DNA of 64,000 nt, from NCBI GenBank assembly GCA_964416335.1, contig CAYQDN010000004.1, positions 518 to 64,517 on the forward strand, written 5' to 3'. The position numbers and the translations under genes were made by a program. This DNA comes from an uncultured Azospirillum sp. GTDB lineage: Bacteria; Pseudomonadota; Alphaproteobacteria; CACIAM-22H2. The notes beneath the pieces were generated by a model. The model was not told where the DNA came from, did no database searches, and saw only the letters and a list, made by a program, of their open reading frames with translations. Below, piece by piece: positions 3,082 through 46,083 of the stretch (position 1 is its first letter; each line of letters begins with the position of its first letter).

Positions 3082-4532
3082 GGGGCTGGGTCTCCTCGTA
3101 GTTCCGGGGGAACGAAGAACGGCGTTGGGGCAAGCTCGCGGTCGTCGAGCCGGCGCAGGTCGGCCTCGTGGGCGTCGAGCGAGGCCGCGAACAGGTCCAC
3201 GACGATCGCCTGCGAAAGCCGTGCCGCCCCGACGCCCAGTGCCGGGATGTCGCCCGACAGCAGGCCGTGGGACAGCGTGGACGAAAAGTTGAACGCGTGC
3301 AAATCGGCGAGCCACGGGGCCGCCGCGGGCTCGCGCGCGACGAAGGCGAAGCGGATGTCGAGATAGGGGAACTGCGCGAGTTCGCCGTCGGCAAGCGCGG
3401 CCGGCGGAACGTAGCGGTCGTGCCAGCGCGCGATGTGGCGGGCAAGGTGTGCGATCTCCGGCCGCTCGGCGGGGTCGACGCCGAAGCCCGTGCACACGAT
3501 GGCGAAGTCGGCGGCATCGACGCGCGCGGGCAGCTGGATCGCGAGCCCCGCCCCGTCGCGCGTCACGCGCTGCCACGGCGCGGAAACATGCATCGAGAAG
3601 GCCGCATGCTTCGTGCAGCGCAGGACCGACTCGTGCGGCGGCGGCACCTGGCAGGCGAAGGCATGGCGCATCAGCCGCCAGCGCGCGGCGTCGGGCAGGA
3701 GGGCGAAGCCGCGCTGGAAACCGGAATAGCCCATCGCCTTGAACTTGTTGATCTGCGGCAGATGCGGCCGGCGGATATAGAGGCGCACGTCGGCGGCACC
3801 GGCTTCGAGCGCTGTCGCCGCATTGTCGAACGCCGAAGCGCCGCCGCCGAGGACCGCCACGCGCTTGCCGCGCAACGCGTCGAAATCGACCGGGTCGCTC
3901 GAATGGGCGATGACGGGCCCGAGTGAAGCCCGGTCGATGAAGGCGGGCCACTTGGCCGCACCGCGGCCGGTGGCGAGCACGACCTTGCGCGCATGGACGG
4001 GTGGGCGTCCCGCGATCTCGACGCGGAACAGCGTGCCGGCGGGGACGATCTTCGTCACGCGCGAATCGTTGACGACCGGCAGGTCGAGCGTGCGGCGCAG
4101 CCAGACCAGATAGTCGTGCCACATCGGTCGCGGGATCTTGTAGAGCGCGTTCCACGCCGCGATGCCGAACTGTGCTTCGTACCAGGCGCGGAAGGTGAGC
4201 GCGGGCACGCCCATGTCGGGGCTGGTCAGGTGCTTGGGGCTGCGCAGCGTTTCCATGCGCGCGAAGCCGATCCACGGGCCCTCGCGCTCGGCGGGGGCCT
4301 CGTCGAACAGGGCGATGTCGTGGATGCCTTCGCGCTTGAGCGCGTGGGCCAGCGTGATCCCGCACATGCCGGCACCCACGACGGCGACGTCGAGTGCGCG
4401 GCTACCGTCGGGGGCGGCGACGGGGGCCGTCCAGCGCGCGGGCGGATAGTTGAGCCGGCCGTTCTGGCGCGACACCTCGTGCGACAGTTCCTCGAGCCCC
4501 GGCGGATGCATCCCGTCCTGCATGGGCGGCAT
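3078..4532 (-). CDS. FAD/NAD(P)-binding oxidoreductase with two dinucleotide-binding motifs (flavin monooxygenase-like); start uncertain (4523/4532/4580)
   Basis: ORF 3078..4580. VAVVGAGMCGITLA (GxGxxG) and RVAVLGGGASAFD second Rossmann motif. Translationally coupled to the SBP. Confidence 0.7.
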   Translation of the reverse strand: MPPMQDGMHPPGLEELSHEVSRQNGRLNYPPARWTAPVAAPDGSRALDVAVVGAGMCGITLAHALKREGIHDIALFDEAPAEREGPWIGFARMETLRSPKHLTSPDMGVPALTFRAWYEAQFGIAAWNALYKIPRPMWHDYLVWLRRTLDLPVVNDSRVTKIVPAGTLFRVEIAGRPPVHARKVVLATGRGAAKWPAFIDRASLGPVIAHSSDPVDFDALRGKRVAVLGGGASAFDNAATALEAGAADVRLYIRRPHLPQINKFKAMGYSGFQRGFALLPDAARWRLMRHAFACQVPPPHESVLRCTKHAAFSMHVSAPWQRVTRDGAGLAIQLPARVDAADFAIVCTGFGVDPAERPEIAHLARHIARWHDRYVPPAALADGELAQFPYLDIRFAFVAREPAAAPWLADLHAFNFSSTLSHGLLSGDIPALGVGAARLSQAIVVDLFAASLDAHEADLRRLDDRELAPTPFFVPPELRGDPAP

Positions 4533-8695: not shown

Positions 8696-9559
8696 ATGGG
8701 TGCGGTTGAAATTCTCGACAAGCCGTCGGCATCGCTTGCCGGTGCGGGGTTCCGCGACGTGCTGGTCCAGTACGACGAGACACCGGGTGCTGAAGCCCGG
8801 CTCGCCTTCGCGGCACGCTTCGCGCGCGACAGCGGGGCGCATCTGGTGGCCCTGGTGGCGCAGGAGCCGCCGCGGCTGCCCAGTGCGGTGCGTGCGGAAG
8901 TGGGCGAGATCTTCTTCGACTCGTGGCGCAAGATGGCGGCCGACACGGCCAAGCGCCTGTCGACGCGCGTCGCCGCACTGGCACGCAGCGAAGGCTGCGC
9001 CATCGAATGCCGCGTCGTCGAGGGTTCGCCCGAAGCGCTGCTGCTCCTGCATTCGCGCTATGCCGACGTGACGGTCGTCGGGCAGGCGGACGACAACGAC
9101 GACCAGACGCGCACCATCGAAGCGCTGCTGTTCGGCTCGGGCCGGCCGATCCTGCTCGTACCCGCGGCGGGCACCTATGCAAGTGTCGGGCGCAACGTGC
9201 TGTGCGCGTGGAACGGCAGCCGCGAGGCGACGCGCGCCGTCGCGGATGCGCTGCCCATCCTGCGCACCGCGCGCCAGGTGACGGTGCTGAGTGCCGATCC
9301 CGCGGGCACGGCGCACCGCATCCCGGGTGCGGACATCGCACTTCATCTCGCACGCCACGGCGTCAAGGTCACGTCGAGCACCACCTACACCGGCGAGCTT
9401 GTCATCGGGGACGCGCTTCTCAACCGTGCGGCGGATCTCGGGGCCGACCTGCTGGTGATGGGCGGTTACGGCCACAGCCGCACGCGCGAGGCTTTCTTCG
9501 GCGGTGCCACGCGCCACGTTCTCGACCACATGACGTTGCCGGTGTTCATGTCGCATTAG
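8696..9559 (+). CDS. Universal stress protein family (tandem Usp domains)
   Basis: ATG 8696 with AAAGGGAGA RBS, inside ORF 8561..9559. Two Usp-like domains. C-terminal GHSRTREAFFGGATRHV motif. Confidence 0.75.
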   Translation: MGAVEILDKPSASLAGAGFRDVLVQYDETPGAEARLAFAARFARDSGAHLVALVAQEPPRLPSAVRAEVGEIFFDSWRKMAADTAKRLSTRVAALARSEGCAIECRVVEGSPEALLLLHSRYADVTVVGQADDNDDQTRTIEALLFGSGRPILLVPAAGTYASVGRNVLCAWNGSREATRAVADALPILRTARQVTVLSADPAGTAHRIPGADIALHLARHGVKVTSSTTYTGELVIGDALLNRAADLGADLLVMGGYGHSRTREAFFGGATRHVLDHMTLPVFMSH

Positions 9560-10392
9560 CGGCGCGGGTCGAGCCGGTCCTGCAGGTCGTCGGCGACGAG
9601 GTTGATCGCCGCGACGGTCAGCAGGATCGCGAGCCCCGGCCACAGGGCAAGCCACGGTGCCTGCCAGATCGTCTCCTGGGCGCCCGTCAGCATGTTGCCC
9701 CAGCTCGGCAGCGGCGGCTGGATGCCGAGGCCGAGGAAGGAGAGCACGCTCTCGAACAGGATCGTGCCGCCGACGGCCAATGCCGTCGCCACGAGGATGG
9801 GGGCCGCACAGTTGGGCAGGATATGCACGAAGGCGACGCGCAGCGGGCCCGCCCCCATCGCCTCGGCCGCGCGCACGAAGTCGCGCGCGCGCAGCGCCAG
9901 CGTGGCCGCGCGCACGAGGCGTGCGACCTTCGGCCAGCCGAACGCGGCGACGATGGCGACGATGCGCCACAGCCCCGCCGCATCGCCGCCGGGAAGCCCG
10001 AGCTTCGCGGGATCGACGGCGGCAAGCACGATCAGCACCGGCAACACCGGCAACGACAGCACGGCGTCGGTCGCGCGCATCAATACGGCATCGACGCGCC
10101 CGCCGGCATAGCCCGCGACGAGGCCCACGAGCGTGCCCACGCACGCGGCGGCAAGGGCGGCGGCGATGCCCACCGTCAGCGACACGCGCGCACCGAAGGC
10201 AAGGCGCATCGCCACGTCGCGGCCAAGCTCGTCCGTCCCCAGCGGGTGCGCGAGGCTGGGGGCCGCGTAGCGCTGCAGGAGGTCGACCGAAGCGGGATCG
10301 TGGCCGATCATTGCGGCCAGCTGCGGGGCGAACAGCGAGGCGAGCAGGGCAAGCCCCAGCACGCACGCGGCGAAGACGGTGCGCGGGCTCAT
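9556..10392 (-). CDS. dppC: ABC transporter permease (DppC/OppC family)
   Basis: Start MSPRTVFAAC at 10392 within the long ORF. Multi-TM protein with EAA-like loop (AAEAMGAGPLRVAFVHILPN). Confidence 0.85.
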   Translation of the reverse strand: MSPRTVFAACVLGLALLASLFAPQLAAMIGHDPASVDLLQRYAAPSLAHPLGTDELGRDVAMRLAFGARVSLTVGIAAALAAACVGTLVGLVAGYAGGRVDAVLMRATDAVLSLPVLPVLIVLAAVDPAKLGLPGGDAAGLWRIVAIVAAFGWPKVARLVRAATLALRARDFVRAAEAMGAGPLRVAFVHILPNCAAPILVATALAVGGTILFESVLSFLGLGIQPPLPSWGNMLTGAQETIWQAPWLALWPGLAILLTVAAINLVADDLQDRLDPRR

Positions 10393-16858: not shown

Positions 16859-18061
16859 GTGCCGGGCGCCCTTGCCGGCCTGCGCGTGGTCGAGCTTGCG
16901 CACATCATGGCCGGCCCCGTCGCCGGCCTGATGCTGGCCGACATGGGGGCGGACGTCGTCAAGGTCGAGAAACTGCCCGGCGGCGACGACACGCGGCGCA
17001 TGGTGCCGCCGCGCGTGGGAAGCGAGAGTGCCGCCTATCTGATGATGAACCGCAACAAGCGGGGGATCGCGCTGGATCTCAAGCAGGACGCGGGCAAGGC
17101 GGTGCTGCGCCGCCTGCTCGGAAATGCCGACGTGCTGATCGAGAACTACCGGCTGGGCACGCTCGACAGGCTCGGTTTCGGCTGGGACGCGGTGCATGCG
17201 CTCAATCCGCGGCTCGTCTATTGCTCGCTGTCGGGCTTCGGGCGCACCGGGCCCTATGCCGCGCGCGGCGGCTTCGATCTGGTGGCGCAGGGCATGTCGG
17301 GCCTGATGCGCATCACGGGCGAGGGGCCGGGGCGCGCTCCCGTCAAGGTCGGCGCGCCGGTGAGCGACATCACCGCGGGCATCCTCGCGGCGATGGGCAT
17401 CCTTGGTGCGCTGCAGGCGCGCCACGCGACGGGCAAAGGCCAGCTTGTCGACACCTCGCTGTTCGAGGCGGGCATCGTGCAGACCTTCTGGCAGTCGGCG
17501 ATCGCCCTTGCCACGGGGATTTCGCCCGGTGCACTGGGTTCGGCCCATCCGCTCAACGCGCCCTACCAGGCCTTCGCCACGAAGGATTGCTGGATCAATG
17601 TCGGGGCGGCCAACCAGGCGGCGTGGCTGAAGCTGGTCGCCTGCCTCGACGCACCCGAACTCGCCGCCGATCCACGCTTTGCCGACAACGCGGCGCGCAT
17701 GGCCAATCTCGCCGCGCTCGTCGCCGCCCTCGACCCGCATTTGCGCACGCGCACGACGGCCGAATGGCTCGCCATATTCGAGAAGGCGGGCATGCCGGCC
17801 GGGCCCGTGCTGTCGATCGGCGAGATGCTCGCCGATCCGCAGACGCGGGCGCGCGGGATGGTGGTCGAGACCGATCATCCCGTCCTCGGCCGCGTGAAGA
17901 CGCTGGGTGCGCCGGTCAAATTCTCCGATACGCCGGCGGAAGTGACGCGTGCGGCCCCGCTGCTGGGCCAGCATTCGCGCGAAGTGCTGGGCGAGATCGG
18001 ATTTTCCGCCGCCGAGATCGAATCGTTCGCCGCAAGCGGTGCGGTTTCGCTGGGCGGGTGA
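16859..18061 (+). CDS. CoA-transferase family III (CaiB/BaiF; formyl-CoA transferase-like)
   Basis: GTG start 16859. GLRVVELAHIMAGPVAGLMLADMGADVVKVE N-terminus is the hallmark of family III CoA-transferases. Confidence 0.8.
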   Translation: MPGALAGLRVVELAHIMAGPVAGLMLADMGADVVKVEKLPGGDDTRRMVPPRVGSESAAYLMMNRNKRGIALDLKQDAGKAVLRRLLGNADVLIENYRLGTLDRLGFGWDAVHALNPRLVYCSLSGFGRTGPYAARGGFDLVAQGMSGLMRITGEGPGRAPVKVGAPVSDITAGILAAMGILGALQARHATGKGQLVDTSLFEAGIVQTFWQSAIALATGISPGALGSAHPLNAPYQAFATKDCWINVGAANQAAWLKLVACLDAPELAADPRFADNAARMANLAALVAALDPHLRTRTTAEWLAIFEKAGMPAGPVLSIGEMLADPQTRARGMVVETDHPVLGRVKTLGAPVKFSDTPAEVTRAAPLLGQHSREVLGEIGFSAAEIESFAASGAVSLGG

Positions 18062-18543
18062 GGTGAGGCTTGTTGACGGGAGTTGACCGTCAACGGGTCA
18101 AGCCGCTGATTTTCCCCGCTTTCGTCCGTTGACGTTGACGGCAAAACCGCGTCGTCGAGGACGAGTTCGCAATCCGGATCGGCCATCGGCGGATCTTCCG
18201 CGCGCGGCCGTTCGGGGAAGGTGCGGCCGACCAGGCCGAGCCGGTCGGCAAGCCACAGCGTGACGCGGATATTGCCTGCCATCACCTCGCGCTTGAGCGT
18301 CTCGGCGACTTCGCTGCGCAGACCGTCGATGATGGCGCCCGCCTCGCTGAGGCTGCGTGCGCGGTTGGCGGCGAAGCGTTTGCGGAACGCGTCGGAATCC
18401 TTCATCACCTTCCAGACATTCTGGCGGGTCGTGCCGATCTTGCCGGCGACATGCGAGGTCGAGCAGCCCTCGGCGAGCATCTCGGCCGCGAGCGCCCAGT
18501 CGAGCGGCTTGCGGGTCTTGAGCGGATAGGAATCTTGTGTCAT
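17875..18543 (-). CDS. Small helix-turn-helix protein (putative regulator); 3' extent uncertain, conserved part is about 18140..18543
   Basis: ATG 18543 with GGAGG RBS. DWALAAEMLAEGCSTSHVAGKIGTTRQNVWKVM is an HTH motif. The ORF runs to the stop at 17875, overlapping the CoA-transferase 3' end by 186 nt; the tail is low-complexity and probably an open-frame artefact of the high GC. Confidence 0.5.
   Translation of the reverse strand: MTQDSYPLKTRKPLDWALAAEMLAEGCSTSHVAGKIGTTRQNVWKVMKDSDAFRKRFAANRARSLSEAGAIIDGLRSEVAETLKREVMAGNIRVTLWLADRLGLVGRTFPERPRAEDPPMADPDCELVLDDAVLPSTSTDESGENQRLDPLTVNSRQQASPHPPSETAPLAANDSISAAENPISPSTSRECWPSSGAARVTSAGVSENLTGAPSVFTRPRTG
18073..18141. promoter_or_regulatory. 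Cluster of TTGAC-containing direct/inverted repeats (TTGACGG, TTGACCGTCAA, CCGTTGACGTTGACGG); candidate operator or bidirectional terminator
   Basis: Read from sequence: TTGACGG 18073-18079, palindrome TTGACCGTCAA 18083-18093, CCGTTGACGTTGACGG 18126-18141. Lies between the convergent CoA-transferase and HTH-protein genes. Confidence 0.35.
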
Positions 18544-21755: not shown

Positions 21756-22903
21756 CGCGACACCAAATCGAGCGGGCGGGCGGAGAGGAGTTCGTTGCCC
21801 GTCTGCGTGACGCGCACCGTCACGCCCGGGCACATCGCCGTGCCGCTGGCCGAATCCATCAGGATCATGTGGAGGAAGAAGACCATGTCGGGCTCGGCGA
21901 TGGCGGGGTTGCCGGCGTAGAACATCGGCCAGTCCATCCAGTTGGGGGCGAACGTGGTGCCCAGCGAATAGCCGCAGGCATTGAGCCGGTGTTCGCCCAT
22001 GCCGGCGGCATCGCAGGTGCGCGCATAGGCCTCGAACACCCGGCCGATGGGTTCGCCCGGCTTGAGGGCCACCCGGCACGCGTCGAGGGCGTCGAGGCAG
22101 ACGGCGTGCATGCGCCGGTGCAGGTCGGAGACGCGCCCGACCGGGATCGTGCGCATCAGGCACGCGTGGTAGTGGCGATGGACGCCGGCGAATTCCAGCG
22201 TGATCTGGTCCTCGGCGCCCAGATGCTTGCGGCCGCTGAAATAGCGGCACAGCAGGGCATCGCGCCCCGAGCCGATGATGAATTCGTTGGCCGGATCGTC
22301 GCCGCCGCCGCGATAGATCGCCCCATGCATCGCCGCGAGGATGTCGCCCTCGAAGGCCCCGGGGGCGATGGTCGCGTGCGCGGCATCGAGGGCGAGGTCG
22401 GCCAACTCGCCCGCGCGGCGCACGTGCGCGATCTCGGCCGCGGATTTCACGACGCGCAGCCGCGTGACGAGGTCCGACGCGTCGACCAGCTTGGCGAAAC
22501 CGTCGAACGCGGCCTCCAGCTTCCGGCCGTTGGCGTGGGTGAGGCCGTAGGCATCGTATTCCGCCCCCAGCCGGCGGCCCGTCAGCCCGAAGCCCGCGAG
22601 GATGTCGCGAAGCTCCTTGGCCGGGTTCGCCCCGTCGCGGTCGACCCAGATGCGGATATCCTCGACGGTCGAGGTGTGGCGCGCCTGGCGCAGGTCGGGG
22701 GCGCGCGTCAGCAGCATGACGCGCCCGTCCGCCCCCAGATAGAGGCACTGGAAGAACACGTAGCCGAACGTGTCGTAGCCGGTCAGGTAGTACATGCTTT
22801 CCTGCCGGAACATCAGCAGCCCGTCGAGGCCGCGGGCCTGCAGGGATGCGGCGGCGCGCGCGCGCCGGGCGGCGAATTCGTCGGGCGTGAAATGCAGGGC
22901 CAT
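21752..22903 (-). CDS. M24-family metallopeptidase (Xaa-Pro aminopeptidase/creatinase-like; ectoine hydrolase-like)
   Basis: ORF 21752..22903. Creatinase N-domain followed by the pita-bread fold (HRHYHACLMRT, GYSLG, FFLHMILMD metal-ligand context). Confidence 0.75.
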   Translation of the reverse strand: MALHFTPDEFAARRARAAASLQARGLDGLLMFRQESMYYLTGYDTFGYVFFQCLYLGADGRVMLLTRAPDLRQARHTSTVEDIRIWVDRDGANPAKELRDILAGFGLTGRRLGAEYDAYGLTHANGRKLEAAFDGFAKLVDASDLVTRLRVVKSAAEIAHVRRAGELADLALDAAHATIAPGAFEGDILAAMHGAIYRGGGDDPANEFIIGSGRDALLCRYFSGRKHLGAEDQITLEFAGVHRHYHACLMRTIPVGRVSDLHRRMHAVCLDALDACRVALKPGEPIGRVFEAYARTCDAAGMGEHRLNACGYSLGTTFAPNWMDWPMFYAGNPAIAEPDMVFFLHMILMDSASGTAMCPGVTVRVTQTGNELLSARPLDLVSR

Positions 22904-22964
22904 GCGTGCTTCTCCTCGAAGGCAACTCTAGCGGGCCCGCGAGGATCGCGCTATCAACGGCTGG

Positions 22965-24074
22965 ATGAAAATCGCCTTCGTCAATCCGAACCCGTCGCAC
23001 GACTACGACGTCGACACGCCGTTCGAGGCCCCGCTGCCCGGCTCGGAATCGGCCCAGATCTATCTGGCGCTTGCTTTGGCCAAGCGCGGGCACGACGTGG
23101 CGCTCTTCACCGGCACCTCGCGCCCCGGCCCGCGCCGCGGGCTGGTGCAGGAACGCTGGAGCGGCAGCCTGCCCGGCGGGTTCGACGCGATCTTCCTCAC
23201 CTCGGCCGCCGACCACGTGGCGCCGTTGCGCGCGGCCCACGGCGACGTGCCGATCTGGGCCTGGCAGCACAACGTGTTCGTGCCCGGCACCGAGGAGGAG
23301 GCGGCGCTGAAGGGCCTCTCCCATCCGCGCGACCGCATCGTGTGCGTCTCGAACTGGCACAAGGCCAACTACGTGGCGCACGGGATCGACGCAACCCGCA
23401 TCGACGTGCTGCGCAACGCGATCGGCCCGCGCTTCGAGACGCTGTTCGCCAAGGGCGAGAGCATCGTCGCGCACAAGAAGGCGCGCGCGGCCTTCACGTC
23501 CGTACCCTACAAGGGGCTCAAGCAGGCGCTCGCCTTCTTCAAGACGCTGCGCACCAGGCGGCCCGAGCTGGTGCTCGACGTGTTCTCGAGCTTCGATTTC
23601 TATCCGCCCAACAACCTGTTCCGCCACCAGACGAGCTGGATGCTGCTGGCGACCGAGGCGAAGACCTCGCCGGGTGTCGCCTATCACGGCAACGTGCCGC
23701 AAGGTACGCTTGCCGAAGCGCTCAAGCGCTCGCTGCTGCTGTTCTATCCCAACGTCGCGTCCGAGACCTCGTCGATCGCGGTGATGGAGGCGATGGCGGC
23801 GGGCTGCGTGGTCATCACGACGGCCCTTGGCGCCCTGCCCGAGACGGTCGGCGAGCACGGCATCCTTGCGCCGGTCGTGGGCAGCAACATCGACCCCGAC
23901 GCCTATGTGAATGCCGCGACCGCCATCGCCGAAGCCTTCATCGCCGGCAACCCGGCCCTCGACGCGCGCCTGCGCCAGCAGGTCGACTGGACCATCGCCA
24001 ACTACCGCTGGGACATCAGGGCGGCCGAGTGCGAGGCGCTGCTGCGCGCGGACCCCTCACCCCGCGACCTATAG
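22965..24074 (+). CDS. Glycosyltransferase family 4 (GT-B fold); last about 7 codons are encoded by the family-B repeat
   Basis: ORF 22965..24074. EX7E-like C-terminal region (SETSSIAVMEAMAAGCVVITT). The stop TAG 24072-24074 lies inside the palindromic element. Confidence 0.75.
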   Translation: MKIAFVNPNPSHDYDVDTPFEAPLPGSESAQIYLALALAKRGHDVALFTGTSRPGPRRGLVQERWSGSLPGGFDAIFLTSAADHVAPLRAAHGDVPIWAWQHNVFVPGTEEEAALKGLSHPRDRIVCVSNWHKANYVAHGIDATRIDVLRNAIGPRFETLFAKGESIVAHKKARAAFTSVPYKGLKQALAFFKTLRTRRPELVLDVFSSFDFYPPNNLFRHQTSWMLLATEAKTSPGVAYHGNVPQGTLAEALKRSLLLFYPNVASETSSIAVMEAMAAGCVVITTALGALPETVGEHGILAPVVGSNIDPDAYVNAATAIAEAFIAGNPALDARLRQQVDWTIANYRWDIRAAECEALLRADPSPRDL

Positions 24075-24158
24075 GTCGCGCCTCTCCCGCAAGGGGAGAG
24101 GGGACACGACCGTGCTTGCCGCTCCCTCTCCCGCTTGCGGGAGAGGGTGGGGTGAGGG
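24053..24158. repeat. Nested-palindrome repeat, family B, copy 1 (CCCCTCACCCC...GGGGTGAGGG outer arms; internal CTCTCCCGCAAGGGGAGAG hairpins)
   Basis: Three hairpins nested inside an outer 10-bp inverted repeat. Second copy at 45947..46083. Confidence 0.75.
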
Positions 24159-24390
24159 AGCGATGTAGTATCTCAGTATTTGTCAAAACGCGGTGCAGCT
24201 GACACCAGCTGTGGTTGACTTGGAATAGAATTTATCCTATACAGGGTTTTGGCGATTCAGTGTTCGCCTGCGTGCCCGCGTTCGCGAAGCCGTTATCGGC
24301 AACACGTTGATCTAAGCGTTCTCACCTCACGCCCCGTGGCGTGCTTGCGGGCAAGCATCCGGTTTCGGGGCGAAGACAGGGGAGGCGCAA

Positions 24391-24969
24391 ATGCGTCCGT
24401 CCATTGAGTTCTTGAAGCGGCAGGCTAAGAAGCTTGTCAAGTCGTCCGGCGTTTCGCATTCAGAAGCGCTTGATGCTGCTGCAAAGTCTTACGGCTTTGG
24501 CAATTGGTCCCAGCTGATGAATGCATTGCCGCAGGGACTGCAAGTCGAGCCGCAGATTTCCGGGGCGTTGACTTCAATCAAGACAGTTTTGAGCGCTGAG
24601 CCGCATCTGAGTGCTTTCGGATTTGGCGTATTCGACGGTCGGCGCAAGTCGTCAACTCAGATCGCAATCGAATTGGCGAAAGCTCGTGAGAATACGCTTA
24701 CGGAAGATAACGCATCGCAGTTCGAACGTTGCTGCCGCTGGCTCAGCATGGTGAAGCGGCGTGCAAGTATCAACTCGAACGTTGGGTCGAGTTACGGACT
24801 TAAGCATCAGGTTGAAAACTATTGGGCCAAACACTTCCCTGATGAAGATCGCTACATTGCGAATGGAATGTTCATCATTGCAGCCATTCATCTCGGCTTT
24901 AAGTTCAAGCGGATCGATGATGGACCGAACGCCTACTTCAATATCTCGTCGAAGGCGCCGCCCAGCTAG
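24391..24969 (+). CDS. Hypothetical protein (192 aa) in a low-GC islet (about 50% GC vs about 67% background)
   Basis: Strong RBS AGGGGAGG 6 nt before ATG. Codon usage is unlike the neighbours. N-terminal LKRQAKKLVK...SHSEALDAAAKSYGFGNWSQL motif. No recognisable catalytic motif. Confidence 0.55.
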   Translation: MRPSIEFLKRQAKKLVKSSGVSHSEALDAAAKSYGFGNWSQLMNALPQGLQVEPQISGALTSIKTVLSAEPHLSAFGFGVFDGRRKSSTQIAIELAKARENTLTEDNASQFERCCRWLSMVKRRASINSNVGSSYGLKHQVENYWAKHFPDEDRYIANGMFIIAAIHLGFKFKRIDDGPNAYFNISSKAPPS

Positions 24970-25062
24970 AGGTGGCGCACAGGTTGTTTTCGTCTTGGAA
25001 TGCGTGCGGAAGTTCAAATAGAATTCGAGCCGACGTTCACCTTCCGGACAAAGGAAACAGCG

Positions 25063-25299
25063 ATGCTTGCGAGCCTCTATGTGGTCATAACGGTCGCGTC
25101 CATGTCGTATGGCGGCTTCTACATCGAGTCCGTCTCTTCATGGTCGACGGACCTTGCCACGCTCGAAGCCTGCCAGAAGGCTGGTGCCCGGGTGCTCGAG
25201 CAGAAGACGCAGTTCCGCTACGAAACCCGCACCGCACACTGTATCGACAAGCAGACGGGCGAGCTCGTGACACTCGAAAAGCCGGTCGCCGCCAAATAG
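25063..25299 (+). CDS. Small hypothetical secreted/membrane protein (78 aa) in the same low-GC islet
   Basis: AAGGAAACAGCG-ATG RBS. N-terminal hydrophobic segment MLASLYVVITVASMSYGGF. Two Cys residues (possible disulfide). Confidence 0.5.
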   Translation: MLASLYVVITVASMSYGGFYIESVSSWSTDLATLEACQKAGARVLEQKTQFRYETRTAHCIDKQTGELVTLEKPVAAK

Positions 25300-25353
25300 G
25301 GTCGCCCGTCATTTCGGCCGCCGCCGAAACGTCCGCGCCGTTTTCCTGCTAGA

Positions 25354-26073
25354 TTGCCGTGCATGAAGGAAGGTCCCGACATCGCGGGTCTCGCCGCCCT
25401 GATCGGCGATCCGGCGCGCGCCAACATGCTGGGGGCGCTGATGGCCGGCAAGGCGCTGACGGCGGGCGAGCTTGCGCTTGAGGCGGGCGTCACGCCGCAG
25501 ACCGCCAGCGGGCATCTTTCGCGCCTCGTCGCGGCGGGGCTGCTGCTGGTGGAAGTGCAGGGGCGCCACCGTTACTACCGGATTGCCGGGCCGGACGTTG
25601 CCGAAGCGCTGGAAACGCTCGACGTGCTCGCCGCGCGCACCGGCCGGCTGCGCGCGCGTCCGGGCCCCAAGGACGCCGCCACGCGCGAAGCGCGCCGCTG
25701 CTACGACCATCTGGCAGGCACGCAAGGGGTCGCGATGTTCGATGCGCTGTTGCGCAACGGCGATATCGCGCACGGCCCCGACGGGCTTGGCCCCAGTGCG
25801 AACGGGCGCGCACGCTTCGTCGCCGAGGGGATCGACATGGCGGATCTCGAATCCCGCCGCCGGCCGCTGTGCCGCGCGTGCCTCGACTGGAGCGAGCGAA
25901 GGCCGCATCTGGCGGGGTCGCTGGGGGCGGCCCTGATGACGATGATGGTCAAGCGTGGCTGGACGAAACCCGACCCCAAGGGGCGTGCCATGCATTTCAC
26001 CGACAAGGGCCGCGCCGCGTTCGACGCGTTCCTTCGGCCGGCGGCGAAACAACCGGCCCGCGCGCGCGGCTAG
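25354..26073 (+). CDS. ArsR/SmtB-family transcriptional regulator with C-terminal extension
   Basis: ORF 25354..26073. ALMAGKALTAGELALEAGVTPQTASGHLSRLVAAGLLLVEVQGRHRYYRI is a winged-HTH ArsR signature. Confidence 0.75.
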   Translation: MPCMKEGPDIAGLAALIGDPARANMLGALMAGKALTAGELALEAGVTPQTASGHLSRLVAAGLLLVEVQGRHRYYRIAGPDVAEALETLDVLAARTGRLRARPGPKDAATREARRCYDHLAGTQGVAMFDALLRNGDIAHGPDGLGPSANGRARFVAEGIDMADLESRRRPLCRACLDWSERRPHLAGSLGAALMTMMVKRGWTKPDPKGRAMHFTDKGRAAFDAFLRPAAKQPARARG

Positions 26074-26103: not shown

Positions 26104-26337
26104 ATGCACGCGACGCTCACCGCCGGTCCCATCGAGACCGCATTCCAGCTCTTCGTCGCCGCGACCCGGCTTCTCGACCGCGCCCTGCTTGCGGCATTCG
26201 CCGCGATATGGGCCGTGCAGGCGCGCGCGCGCGAACGGGCACTGCTTGCCTCGCTCGACGCGCGTGCGCTTGCCGACATGGGGATCACGCGCTGCGACGT
26301 GATGTGCGAACTGGAAAAGCCGTTCTGGCGGGACTAG
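26104..26337 (+). CDS. DUF1127 domain-containing small protein
   Basis: GGAGGAAAGAC-ATG RBS. C-terminal LASLDARALADMGITRCDV matches the DUF1127 motif. Confidence 0.65.
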   Translation: MHATLTAGPIETAFQLFVAATRLLDRALLAAFAAIWAVQARARERALLASLDARALADMGITRCDVMCELEKPFWRD

Positions 26338-39291: not shown

Positions 39292-39395
39292 CCGTCATGC
39301 CCGGCGAATGCCGCACCGGGCAATGCCCGGTGCCACGTCTTTTGCGGTTTTGCGGAGAGTTGAAGTCGTGGATACCCGGGACAAGCCATCCGGGG
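39292..39395. repeat. REP/BIME-like repeat, family A, copy 3 (rearranged/degenerate half-units)
   Basis: CCGTCATGCCCGGCGAATGCCGCACCGGGCAATGCCCGG...GAAGTCGTGGATACCCGGGACAAGCCATCCGGGG. Confidence 0.7.
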
Positions 39396-39459
39396 TTGCA
39401 AGTCAATCGCGCGCATCGTAAGATTAAATCAGAGATTGTCTCGATTGCCGGGAGCGGCC

Positions 39460-40077
39460 ATGAGCTTCTTGATATTCCAGGTGGCGGTACTTTTCCTTCC
39501 TGGACTCATTTGGGCATCGATCGACGCGAAGTACGTCGCGAAGCGCGAGGTTCCCCAGTTCCAGCTCCTGCTCAATGCGTTCCTGTTCGGGGTATTCACC
39601 TACACCGTCCTGTACCTGTTGATGCGTCAGTACGGATTCACGACCAGTCTTCCGGCCATCTTCGACGAAACGTCCGAAAAGCTTCAGATCGGCAAGGCGA
39701 TCGACGAGATCGTCTGGGCGGTCCTTCTTTCGGTCGTTCTCGCGGTCTGCTGGGTGTATTTGGGAACCTACAAGATCATAAACCGCTTCCTGCAGCGGAT
39801 TTCCGCGACCAAGAAGTTCGGTGATGAGGATGTATGGGATTTCGTCTTCAACTCGAATGATGCCGCCGTCGAGTATGTCAACGTGCGCGATTTCGCGAAG
39901 AAGATCGTGTATTCGGGTTGGGTCAAGGCCTTCTCGGATCGCGCCGAACTTCGCGAGTTGGTGCTCCGCGACGTTCAGGTGTACGATTTCGAATCGAAGC
40001 TTCTCTTCGACATGCCTTTGATCTATGTGGCGCGGAAGAAGGACGATATCGACATCGAGTTCCCGTACCGCCAATAA
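39460..40077 (+). CDS. Hypothetical membrane protein (205 aa) on a low-GC (about 53%) islet
   Basis: GGAG RBS 8 nt before ATG 39460. Three N-terminal TM helices plus a charged C-terminal domain. The GC drop is confined to this gene. Confidence 0.55.
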   Translation: MSFLIFQVAVLFLPGLIWASIDAKYVAKREVPQFQLLLNAFLFGVFTYTVLYLLMRQYGFTTSLPAIFDETSEKLQIGKAIDEIVWAVLLSVVLAVCWVYLGTYKIINRFLQRISATKKFGDEDVWDFVFNSNDAAVEYVNVRDFAKKIVYSGWVKAFSDRAELRELVLRDVQVYDFESKLLFDMPLIYVARKKDDIDIEFPYRQ

Positions 40078-40121
40078 GCTTGCGTATATATGCCCAATTT
40101 CTTTCCGAGGAGCGGCCGATC

Positions 40122-40298
40122 ATGGTGAGTTCAAAACCGCCCGCCACGACCCGGCTGACCGAAGGCCATGTCGTGAAAGGCGGCGTCAATCCGCCGACCT
40201 CTCAGGTCGTGTCCCGTCCCCCGCCACCGGCACCGATCCGGCCGTCAGCACCGCAGCCGGCGCCGGCTGGCGGATCGACGGTCACACCGAAGCCCTAG
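40122..40298 (+). CDS. Possible small Pro-rich protein (58 aa)
   Basis: AGGAGCGGCCGATC-ATG gives a good RBS. It fits exactly in the gap before the convergent SDR gene. Pro-rich, low complexity, no homology recognised; could be non-coding. Confidence 0.25.
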   Translation: MVSSKPPATTRLTEGHVVKGGVNPPTSQVVSRPPPPAPIRPSAPQPAPAGGSTVTPKP

Positions 40299-45946: not shown

Positions 45947-46083
45947 GCCCCCTCACCCCGCGACGTATACGTCGCGCCTCTCCCGCAAGGGGAGAGGGAA
46001 TCATACCGGTGATATGGATGCACGAGTGCGTGCGTCACCAAGACTGAAGTCCCCTCTCCCCTTGCGGGAGAGGGTGAGGGGTG
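45947..46083. repeat. Nested-palindrome repeat, family B, copy 2 (longer central spacer)
   Basis: CCCCCTCACCCCGCGACGTATACGTCGCGCCTCTCCCGCAAGGGGAGAGG ... CCCCTCTCCCCTTGCGGGAGAGGGTGAGGGG. Confidence 0.75.

Follow-up and report, generated by a model that had tools for sequence, protein, structure and literature searches.

Moron genes and orphan hotspot genes are single, promoter-bearing genes of atypical composition that lie between conserved core genes, at positions where the cargo differs in sister genomes. Repetitive extragenic palindromic (REP) elements and bacterial interspersed mosaic elements (BIMEs) are small genomic features of another kind, being repeated, strongly self-complementary and intergenic. 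Both have a counterpart in an islet of low guanine-cytosine (GC) content in a 64,000-nucleotide stretch of DNA from an uncultured Azospirillum sp. (contig CAYQDN010000004.1 of assembly GCA_964416335.1), which as a whole is called the window here. The islet lies between a glycosyltransferase gene and a gene for an ArsR-type regulator and holds two small genes, orf192 and orf78. It differs from the setting of moron and orphan hotspot genes in that there is no prophage, integrase, tRNA or flanking repeat, the only nearby repeat being a REP-like palindrome. That palindrome is like a REP or BIME sequence in being a GC-rich nested palindrome of ~105 bp that is strongly structured, repeated and located at a gene 3' end, and unlike one in that it extends into the glycosyltransferase gene, recasting its final codons, and in that only two copies are visible in 64 kb. 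The explanation that we hold to be probable, if only moderately so, is a composite islet at a hypervariable junction, in which orf192, a solitary gene derived from a mobile element and encoding a nucleic-acid-binding protein, stands beside an unrelated orf78. The islet would then read, in order, as a REP-like palindrome, a foreign segment of ~820 bp with an intact orf192, and an older orf78 with a promoter of its own.

The compositional anomaly is the most pronounced of the window. In a profile of 300-bp sliding windows, GC is 0.50-0.59 at 24100-25200, compared with 0.68-0.73 upstream (22000-24100) and 0.67-0.75 after 25300. Among the 64 one-kb bins across the window, the lowest is 24001-25000 at 0.559, the next lowest having 0.601 and the window a mean of 0.68, and an 815-bp core at 24166-24980 (GC 0.531) ranks 1/1264 among sliding windows, with a z of -6.4 against the rest of the window. 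Two open reading frames (ORFs) on the same strand occupy the dip. The first, orf192 (24391-24969, + strand), is a 192-codon ORF in the mechanical ORF list and is preceded by GGGGAGG; the second, orf78 (25063-25299, + strand), begins with ATG 25063 behind AAGGAA. An earlier sequence-only reading had described a GC dip with two same-strand ORFs behind strong ribosome-binding sites (RBSs), bounded by a palindrome that forms the 3' end of the glycosyltransferase gene and by an ArsR regulator, and each of these features was recovered. The codon-composition calculation that it proposed gave a GC content at third codon positions (GC3) of 0.61 for orf192 and 0.80 for orf78, against 0.85-0.93 for five neighbouring genes.

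What is foreign in the islet is best delimited by comparison with related genomes. The ArsR-type protein retrieves orthologues of 82-85% identity from Tagaea (Rhodospirillales) genomes and metagenome-assembled genomes (MAGs), and nine related Tagaea loci (L005-L013) were compared, L013 with only the glycosyltransferase and ArsR matched. The order of M24 peptidase, glycosyltransferase, ArsR regulator, EamA transporter and formate-tetrahydrofolate ligase is kept in the related loci, and it is the junction between glycosyltransferase and ArsR that varies. This junction is empty, with a gap of about 45-60 bp, in L006, L007, L008 and L011, and is also empty in L013. It holds an insertion sequence (IS) in L005, with a 380-aa transposase of integrase-core type recognised from its translation alone, and a histidine kinase of ~505 aa in L010 and L012. 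In L009, a Tagaea MAG, a histidine kinase is followed by a 78-aa gene that is 69% identical to orf78. At the DNA level, homology to L012 reaches up to 24161 on the left, and homology to L009 resumes from 24981 on the right, so that the segment 24162-24980 (+ strand), which contains orf192 and its 229-bp upstream region, is the only part unique to this genome. The segment is absent from 9/9 related Tagaea loci in which the flanks are kept, and recurs only in two short read-assembly contigs, with 100% identity. In a neighbour-joining tree built from 989 flanking-protein residues, the window groups with L005 and L007, and L009 groups with L006. Junction states are patchy across this tree and therefore require repeated loss or recombination between species. 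The neighbourhood comparison, which the sequence-only reading had recommended, hence finds presence/absence polymorphism at this junction: orthologues of the two genes do not both occupy the position in all relatives, and both genes are conserved at the protein level.

The orf192 product is a basic two-domain protein of 192 aa with an isoelectric point (pI) of 9.6 and a net charge of +8, the family median pI being 9.3. It at first resembles an orphan, as a word-indexed search of 5.8 billion proteins matched only the protein itself and one 45% identical protein. This status was rejected as an artefact of the sensitivity of that search, because an exhaustive phmmer (HMMER) search yielded 1357 cluster representatives at E<=1e-3, of which 231 reach E<=1e-10. 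Most of the matches span residues ~60-190, many of them being stand-alone proteins of 125-160 aa, and some relatives are full-length, such as P0163 with 49% identity over 99%. In a 79-sequence alignment the near-invariant positions are P71, L73, G77, R99, L118, S134-Y-G-L-K-H-x-x-E142, Y155, N158-G159, I162, A164-A165, G169, P179-N180 and N184. Every one of them is present in orf192, and for this reason the gene looks intact.

Curated resources say little about this conserved C-terminal domain (C-domain). Even with the threshold relaxed to E<=1, none of the 79 members has a Pfam family over it, and no NCBIfam or PADLOC model matches it. Its closest described likenesses are two phage families of 'unknown function': phrog_17839 (3.2e-10), in which profile positions 107-205 of 237 align with orf192 residues 91-189, and phrog_9576 (8.5e-5), in which positions 55-123 of 136 align with residues 112-188. 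Ten larger orf192 relatives match the same two profiles. Size and conserved motifs agree between these families and the C-domain of orf192, which differs in adding an N-terminal three-helix module and in standing alone in a bacterial chromosome. Pfam and PHROG scans of the larger relatives identified no extra domain, one SduA_C excepted, and the match of P0034 (1365 aa, seven matched stretches) was discarded as spurious, being located on He_PIG repeats. No literature on either PHROG id, or on PF20066 or Glyoxalase_8 (taken up below), turned up.

A structural model of orf192 was obtained with AlphaFold2 from an alignment (predicted local distance difference test, pLDDT, 92.9; predicted template modelling score, pTM, 0.74) and used instead of the single-sequence model, which was uninformative at a pLDDT of 51.7. 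The model consists of a basic N-terminal three-helix module at residues 1-46 (24391-24528; helices 5-19, 23-32 and 39-45) and the conserved C-domain at residues 53-192 (24547-24966), joined by a low-confidence linker. The C-domain opens with helices 53-69 and 88-102. These are followed by helix 105-118, strand 123-128, helix 134-148, helix 158-167, strand 172-174, a loop and strand 181-185, so that the predicted core at residues 105-185 (24703-24945) has the H1-S1-H2-H3-S2-wing-S3 order of a winged helix-turn-helix. The fold class is a probable winged helix, with modest structure-comparison scores. Its comparators are the origin-binding domain of phage P4 gp-alpha (1ka8), RFX1/RFX5, the C-terminal winged helix of Cdt1 and the N-domain of the Fur family. 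Sequence identity to these domains is 8-13%, and orf192 differs from them by an unusually hydrophobic helix at the recognition position and by two extra helices (residues 53-102) ahead of the core. A Foldseek search of the model against the PDB returned nothing significant, a BFVD structure search gave one match, unnamed, and when PDB sequences were searched with a profile, BurrH repeats alone matched, insignificantly, and no sequence-related solved structure appeared. The model thus has no close structural relative. The sequence-only reading had seen no recognisable catalytic motif in orf192; as a statement on motifs this is only partly right, since the protein has a recurrent N-terminal module and a conserved, winged-helix-like C-domain.

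By its sequence matches, the N-terminal module is a promiscuous small helical one. PF20066 (Glyoxalase_8) matches residues 3-59 over positions 6-71 of 143 with 23.7 bits, a score equal to the cut-off, and NF004629/PRK05973, a family of DnaB-like plasmid helicases labelled 'DNA helicase', matches residues 5-46 over positions 7-48 of 237 with 24.6 bits against a cut-off of 156. Membership of orf192 in either family was rejected, as only the short N-terminal helical module is matched; orf192 shares this module with both and is without their glyoxalase-fold and ATPase parts. The module, of ~45 residues, also starts Xanthomonas plasmid proteins of the 'YozE family', and in Xanthomonas phages makes up by itself a 48-aa ORF that follows the gene for DNA polymerase I. 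In Xanthomonas phage PhiXhv-1 (L179, 3004-3150) such a module-only ORF of 48 aa is annotated 'replicative DNA helicase', a label that is probably an over-annotation derived from the partial PRK05973 match.

Relatives of orf192 are widespread on mobile elements. By tblastn they are present in 38 plasmid records, including 18 from conjugative plasmids, and in 7 phage records; the hosts are alpha-, beta- and gammaproteobacteria, Streptomyces and Flavobacterium. A scan of IMG/VR added 144 viral contigs with a relative. Neighbour genes were clustered for 78 IMG/VR loci, equal to 48 dereplicated groups, and in 25-30/48 of these groups the domain gene is accompanied by at least one of three conserved neighbours. 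Immediately upstream is a protein of ~221 aa, further upstream a family-A DNA polymerase of ~600 aa (Klenow, E 7e-20), and downstream a SNF2/Rad54-type helicase of ~510 aa (E 4e-24). The ~221-aa protein (IMG/VR L099-L178, alignment A4) has invariant D119, D134-Y-K136 and Cys28/219/222/227. From this D...D-x-K and four-Cys pattern it reads as a putative Cas4-like nuclease with an iron-sulfur signature, an identity unconfirmed by database score (E 0.67), and it has no sequence-related solved structure. Given these three neighbours, the commonest conserved context of the family is a phage module for DNA replication and recombination.

Other relatives occur in more varied company. Their neighbourhoods include IS3 and TnpB with an AAA ATPase/UvrD pair (Gabija-like); an integrase with AbiE; Tn3 with Shedu; Abi with SieB; the repressor/antirepressor region of an Acinetobacter phage; AbiE with DUF4365; a Gabija-like pair with a TnsA-like gene; Wadjet and BrxR with an integrase; a Mu-like prophage; and a phage-plasmid with a ParB-methylase, terminase and RepB. 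A further relative lies near VapE and a DnaG-type primase (L097), and in a small integrative element (L098) the relative overlaps the start of a Toprim/D5_N primase-helicase pair that adjoins an integrase. In two Rhizobiales plasmids, from Martelella (L086, 4713-5792) and Agrobacterium (L087, 4653-5732), a 359-aa Schlafen AlbA_2 protein is encoded directly upstream of the relative. The two genes are possibly a conserved two-gene unit of such plasmids; the AlbA_2 protein, annotated 'ATP-binding protein', is uninformative.

The foreign origin of orf192 is well supported by these comparisons. Atypical composition, presence/absence polymorphism and homologues on mobile elements are all found for this gene, while for orf78 only the first two apply, and those in part. 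The sequence-only reading, which had suggested that the islet is horizontally acquired cargo, therefore holds for orf192, with its GC3 of 0.61, its unique segment and its relatives in phages, plasmids and integrative elements, and fails for orf78, which appears to be an older resident and no part of the same cargo unit. The orf192 protein probably acts by binding nucleic acid, most likely DNA, as suggested by the predicted fold, the positive charge and the relatives in replication modules and in accessory regions of plasmids and defence islands. It is solitary, with no enzymatic domain and no partner gene here, and may be a domesticated or a neutral leftover of a phage or plasmid fragment. Transcription could start from a putative sigma-70-type promoter at 24215-24243 (+ strand), TTGACT-N17-TATACA, a weak site found by eye on which the consensus scan was silent, its second hexamer being without the final T. 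A structured 5' leader was also considered and rejected (24245-24400, fold z = -0.66).

The second gene has a different character. The mechanical ORF list gives a 99-aa reading at 25000-25299, and the 78-aa form starts at ATG 25063. The later start is preferred because a promoter-like site, TTGGAA-N18-TAGAAT at 24995-25024 (+ strand), lies within the 99-aa extension, because the L009 homologue has TTGGAA-N18-TAGGAT at the same distance with the same AAGGAA RBS and the same ATG, and because gene callers on two public contigs gave 78 residues. This was the only promoter-like site found in 23900-25450. In the word-indexed search of 5.8 billion proteins orf78 matched only itself and the L009 copy, P0004, and from that search alone the gene would be restricted to Tagaea. 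The L009 homologue occupies the same position, directly upstream of ArsR. A codon alignment of the two copies gave a ratio of nonsynonymous to synonymous substitution rates (dN/dS) of 0.34 with a dS of 0.66, and the flanks gave 0.30 with a dS of 0.30 (glycosyltransferase) and 0.25 with a dS of 0.52 (ArsR). From these values orf78 looks translated and constrained, and has diverged at roughly the pace of its surroundings.

The protein itself matches its first description as a 78-aa product with an N-terminal hydrophobic segment and two Cys residues. Hydropathy is 1.3-1.5 over the first 19 residues, with no positive charge before and an acidic segment after, and both cysteines, C37 and C60, are conserved in the L009 homologue. 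Given the positive-inside rule and the periplasmic site of disulfide formation, orf78 is probably exported or held in the membrane by its N-terminus, and would carry one disulfide on the periplasmic side. Its sequence and distribution point to a resident, genus-specific gene that is older than the orf192 segment and has a separate history.

The edges of the variable junction are marked by two hairpin-forming elements, and the junction is a hotspot between them. On the left, the REP-like nested palindrome at 24054-24161 has outer arms CCCTCACCCC and GGGGTGAGGG and inner hairpins on CCTCTCCCGC..GCGGGAGAGG (inverted repeats I2, I3, I5 and I10). Folded as single-strand DNA it reaches -44.2 kcal/mol (z = -6.3), with 0/200 shuffles as good. 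It overlaps and supplies the last 7 glycosyltransferase codons, and the resulting C-terminal tail, 'DPSPRDL', is missing from the loci with an empty junction. A second copy at 45950-46076, 96% identical over the first 49 nt and with the inner hairpins, shows the element to be a repeat family in this genome, and as a repeated, strongly self-complementary element it is of REP type. The same element is present at the same site, directly after the glycosyltransferase gene, in L012. An Rfam scan of 23500-26000 found no family at threshold and only sub-threshold microRNA-like matches on the palindrome.

On the right, a native palindrome, TTTCGGCCGCCGCCGAAA (25312-25329), lies ~35 bp upstream of the ArsR-type gene, and its pattern TTTCGGCCGC-N-GCCGAAA is kept in 10/10 aligned loci. 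It may be an operator or a terminator. In L009 it is present twice (9533-9556 and about 9957-9980), flanking the orf78 cassette, with one copy ending the kinase gene, and in L010 and L012 the last histidine kinase codons are formed by the sequence of this palindrome. The duplication and the kinase ends suggest that the pre-ArsR hairpin is a recombination site for the gain and loss of cassettes. The unique segment itself starts where the left palindrome ends and stops just upstream of the orf78 promoter. It probably entered, by replacement or insertion, through illegitimate or short-homology recombination between these two points, and we conjecture that it may have displaced the histidine kinase gene found there in three relatives. 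A direct repeat at 24203-24226 and 24978-25001 was tried as a target-site duplication and rejected, 176/1000 shuffles being as good.

The proximity of the two genes first suggested a toxin/immunity, toxin/antitoxin or accessory defence pair that was acquired jointly. They are same-strand neighbours separated by 93 bp that contain no terminator-like site, and orf78, as a small membrane-type protein, might in principle serve as toxin or as immunity factor. A TacA/GNAT toxin-antitoxin pair is encoded about 0.5 kb away from P0002, the closest relative of the C-domain, and several other relatives are within defence islands. However, orf78 is present without orf192 at the same locus in L009, and no orf78-like gene neighbours any orf192 relative among the loci searched. 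The two differ in GC3 and in the extent of homology to relatives, and orf78 has its own conserved promoter. Neither protein matches any model of PADLOC-DB v2 at E<=1, no defence system components adjoin them, and Pfam, NCBIfam and PHROGs give no toxin, antitoxin or immunity family for either. From the absence of co-inheritance and of any such match we conclude that a functional pair, in either the toxin/immunity or the defence version that the sequence-only reading had offered, is highly improbable.

The remaining alternatives concern orf192 more directly. It might be a stand-alone conflict gene kept as host protection, through defence, superinfection exclusion or anti-defence, whose winged-helix domain would serve to detect foreign nucleic acid or to sequester it. 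Relatives stand beside Gabija-like ATPase/UvrD pairs in two independent loci and beside Wadjet/BrxR, AbiE, Abi/SieB and Shedu in others; the Acinetobacter phage copy lies in a repressor/antirepressor region, a typical place of accessory moron genes; and orf192 has kept every conserved residue. There is even a fusion, the 325-aa metagenomic protein P0058, in which a Shedu SduA_C nuclease (17-169, E 2.8e-10) precedes an orf192-type domain (199-315), the reverse of the usual Shedu layout of variable N-terminal domains and a C-terminal nuclease. Yet P0058 is the only one of the 79 members to match PADLOC, and does so through its nuclease part (SduA), while orf192 lacks an effector domain, the commonest conserved context is the phage replication module and not a defence island, and a shared location on mobile elements is weak evidence for function. 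We regard this role as unlikely, though not negligibly so. Decay offers another explanation, in which orf192 would be a non-functional remnant of a phage or plasmid and orf78 a spurious or dispensable ORF. A gene with no partner or mobility genes and a weak promoter match, found only in this genome and two identical short contigs, at a locus that readily loses content in relatives, would fit such a history. The full length of orf192, its complete set of near-invariant residues and its good RBS do not, nor does orf78, which is under purifying selection and has kept its start, RBS, promoter and Cys pair across two species; we find decay quite unlikely. A bolder proposal, and a long shot, is that the C-domain represents an unrecognised origin- or fork-binding winged-helix family (at least 231 clusters at 50% identity) of which the Tagaea copy is a domesticated decoy. 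If true, the Tagaea orf192 would bind the replication DNA or the helicase of incoming elements, a one-gene exclusion mechanism.

The composite islet with a solitary nucleic-acid-binding orf192 also has to be set against evidence that does not favour it. The helix at the recognition position (NGMFIIAAIHLGF) has a hydrophobic character that is unusual in helices that read DNA. The conserved polar residues are located where helices 2 and 3 begin and in the wing, and the invariant residues of S-Y-G-L-K-H-x-x-E, N-G and P-N...N might instead line a pocket for ligand binding or catalysis. The mixed context of the relatives, many of them in the defence islands named above, together with the Shedu fusion, means that the data fit a part in genetic conflict as well as they fit one in replication. 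As for the route of entry, no mobility signature accounts for the segment. The islet (24054-25362) contains no integrase or transposase gene and the only tRNA is at 3985, and with no integrase, transposase, adjoining tRNA or significant direct repeat it does not qualify as a classical genomic island or integrative element. Nor does the islet hold a remnant of the histidine kinase gene that the segment may have displaced.

The genes that enclose the islet are native, and by Pfam scan its neighbours in the window are housekeeping genes. On the left is a GT4-type glycosyltransferase gene (22965-24074, + strand, stop 24072-24074; Pfam Glycos_transf_1, Glyco_trans_1_4 and Glyco_transf_4; GC3 0.93), whose orthologues in L005-L013 are 74-91% identical and in the same position. 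On the right is the gene for the regulator of ArsR/HTH_20 type (25354/25363-26073, + strand; HTH_20 4e-10, HTH_5 1.6e-5; GC3 0.85), which probably starts at ATG 25363, matching its orthologues. The M24 peptidase and the EamA transporter further out were recognised by Pfam, and the formate-tetrahydrofolate ligase by where it lies and by its translation. The interval from the ArsR-type gene to EamA holds a 77-aa ORF (26104-26337, + strand) with a C-terminal '...LDARALADMGITRCDV...' motif, which we take to resemble DUF1127-type small proteins. This second junction varies in length as well. It is shortest in L008 (~30 bp), runs to 260-290 bp in L006, L009 and the window, and reaches 1.2-1.7 kb in L005, L012 and L007, the last of which also carries part of the formate-tetrahydrofolate ligase gene a second time (17805-18194). 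Elsewhere in the window, a second low-GC islet at 39350-40250 (0.52-0.56 against 0.67-0.72 in its flanks) holds a 213-aa ORF (39436-40077, + strand) with hydrophobic, transmembrane-like segments in its N-terminal third, and may be another acquired single gene.

For this genome the islet is of little consequence, being a small and unremarkable stretch of DNA taken up horizontally at a junction prone to gain and loss, and annotation as a toxin/immunity or defence pair is unwarranted. The series of junction states (empty, IS, kinase, kinase with orf78, and orf192 with orf78) is a natural set for the study of palindromes that mark recombination hotspots. Of wider interest is a confidently modelled, winged-helix-like domain of ~130 residues that phage replication modules, plasmids and defence islands commonly encode and that is without a curated family. 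Defining this C-domain family would clear a recurrent 'hypothetical protein' from the annotation of phages and plasmids.

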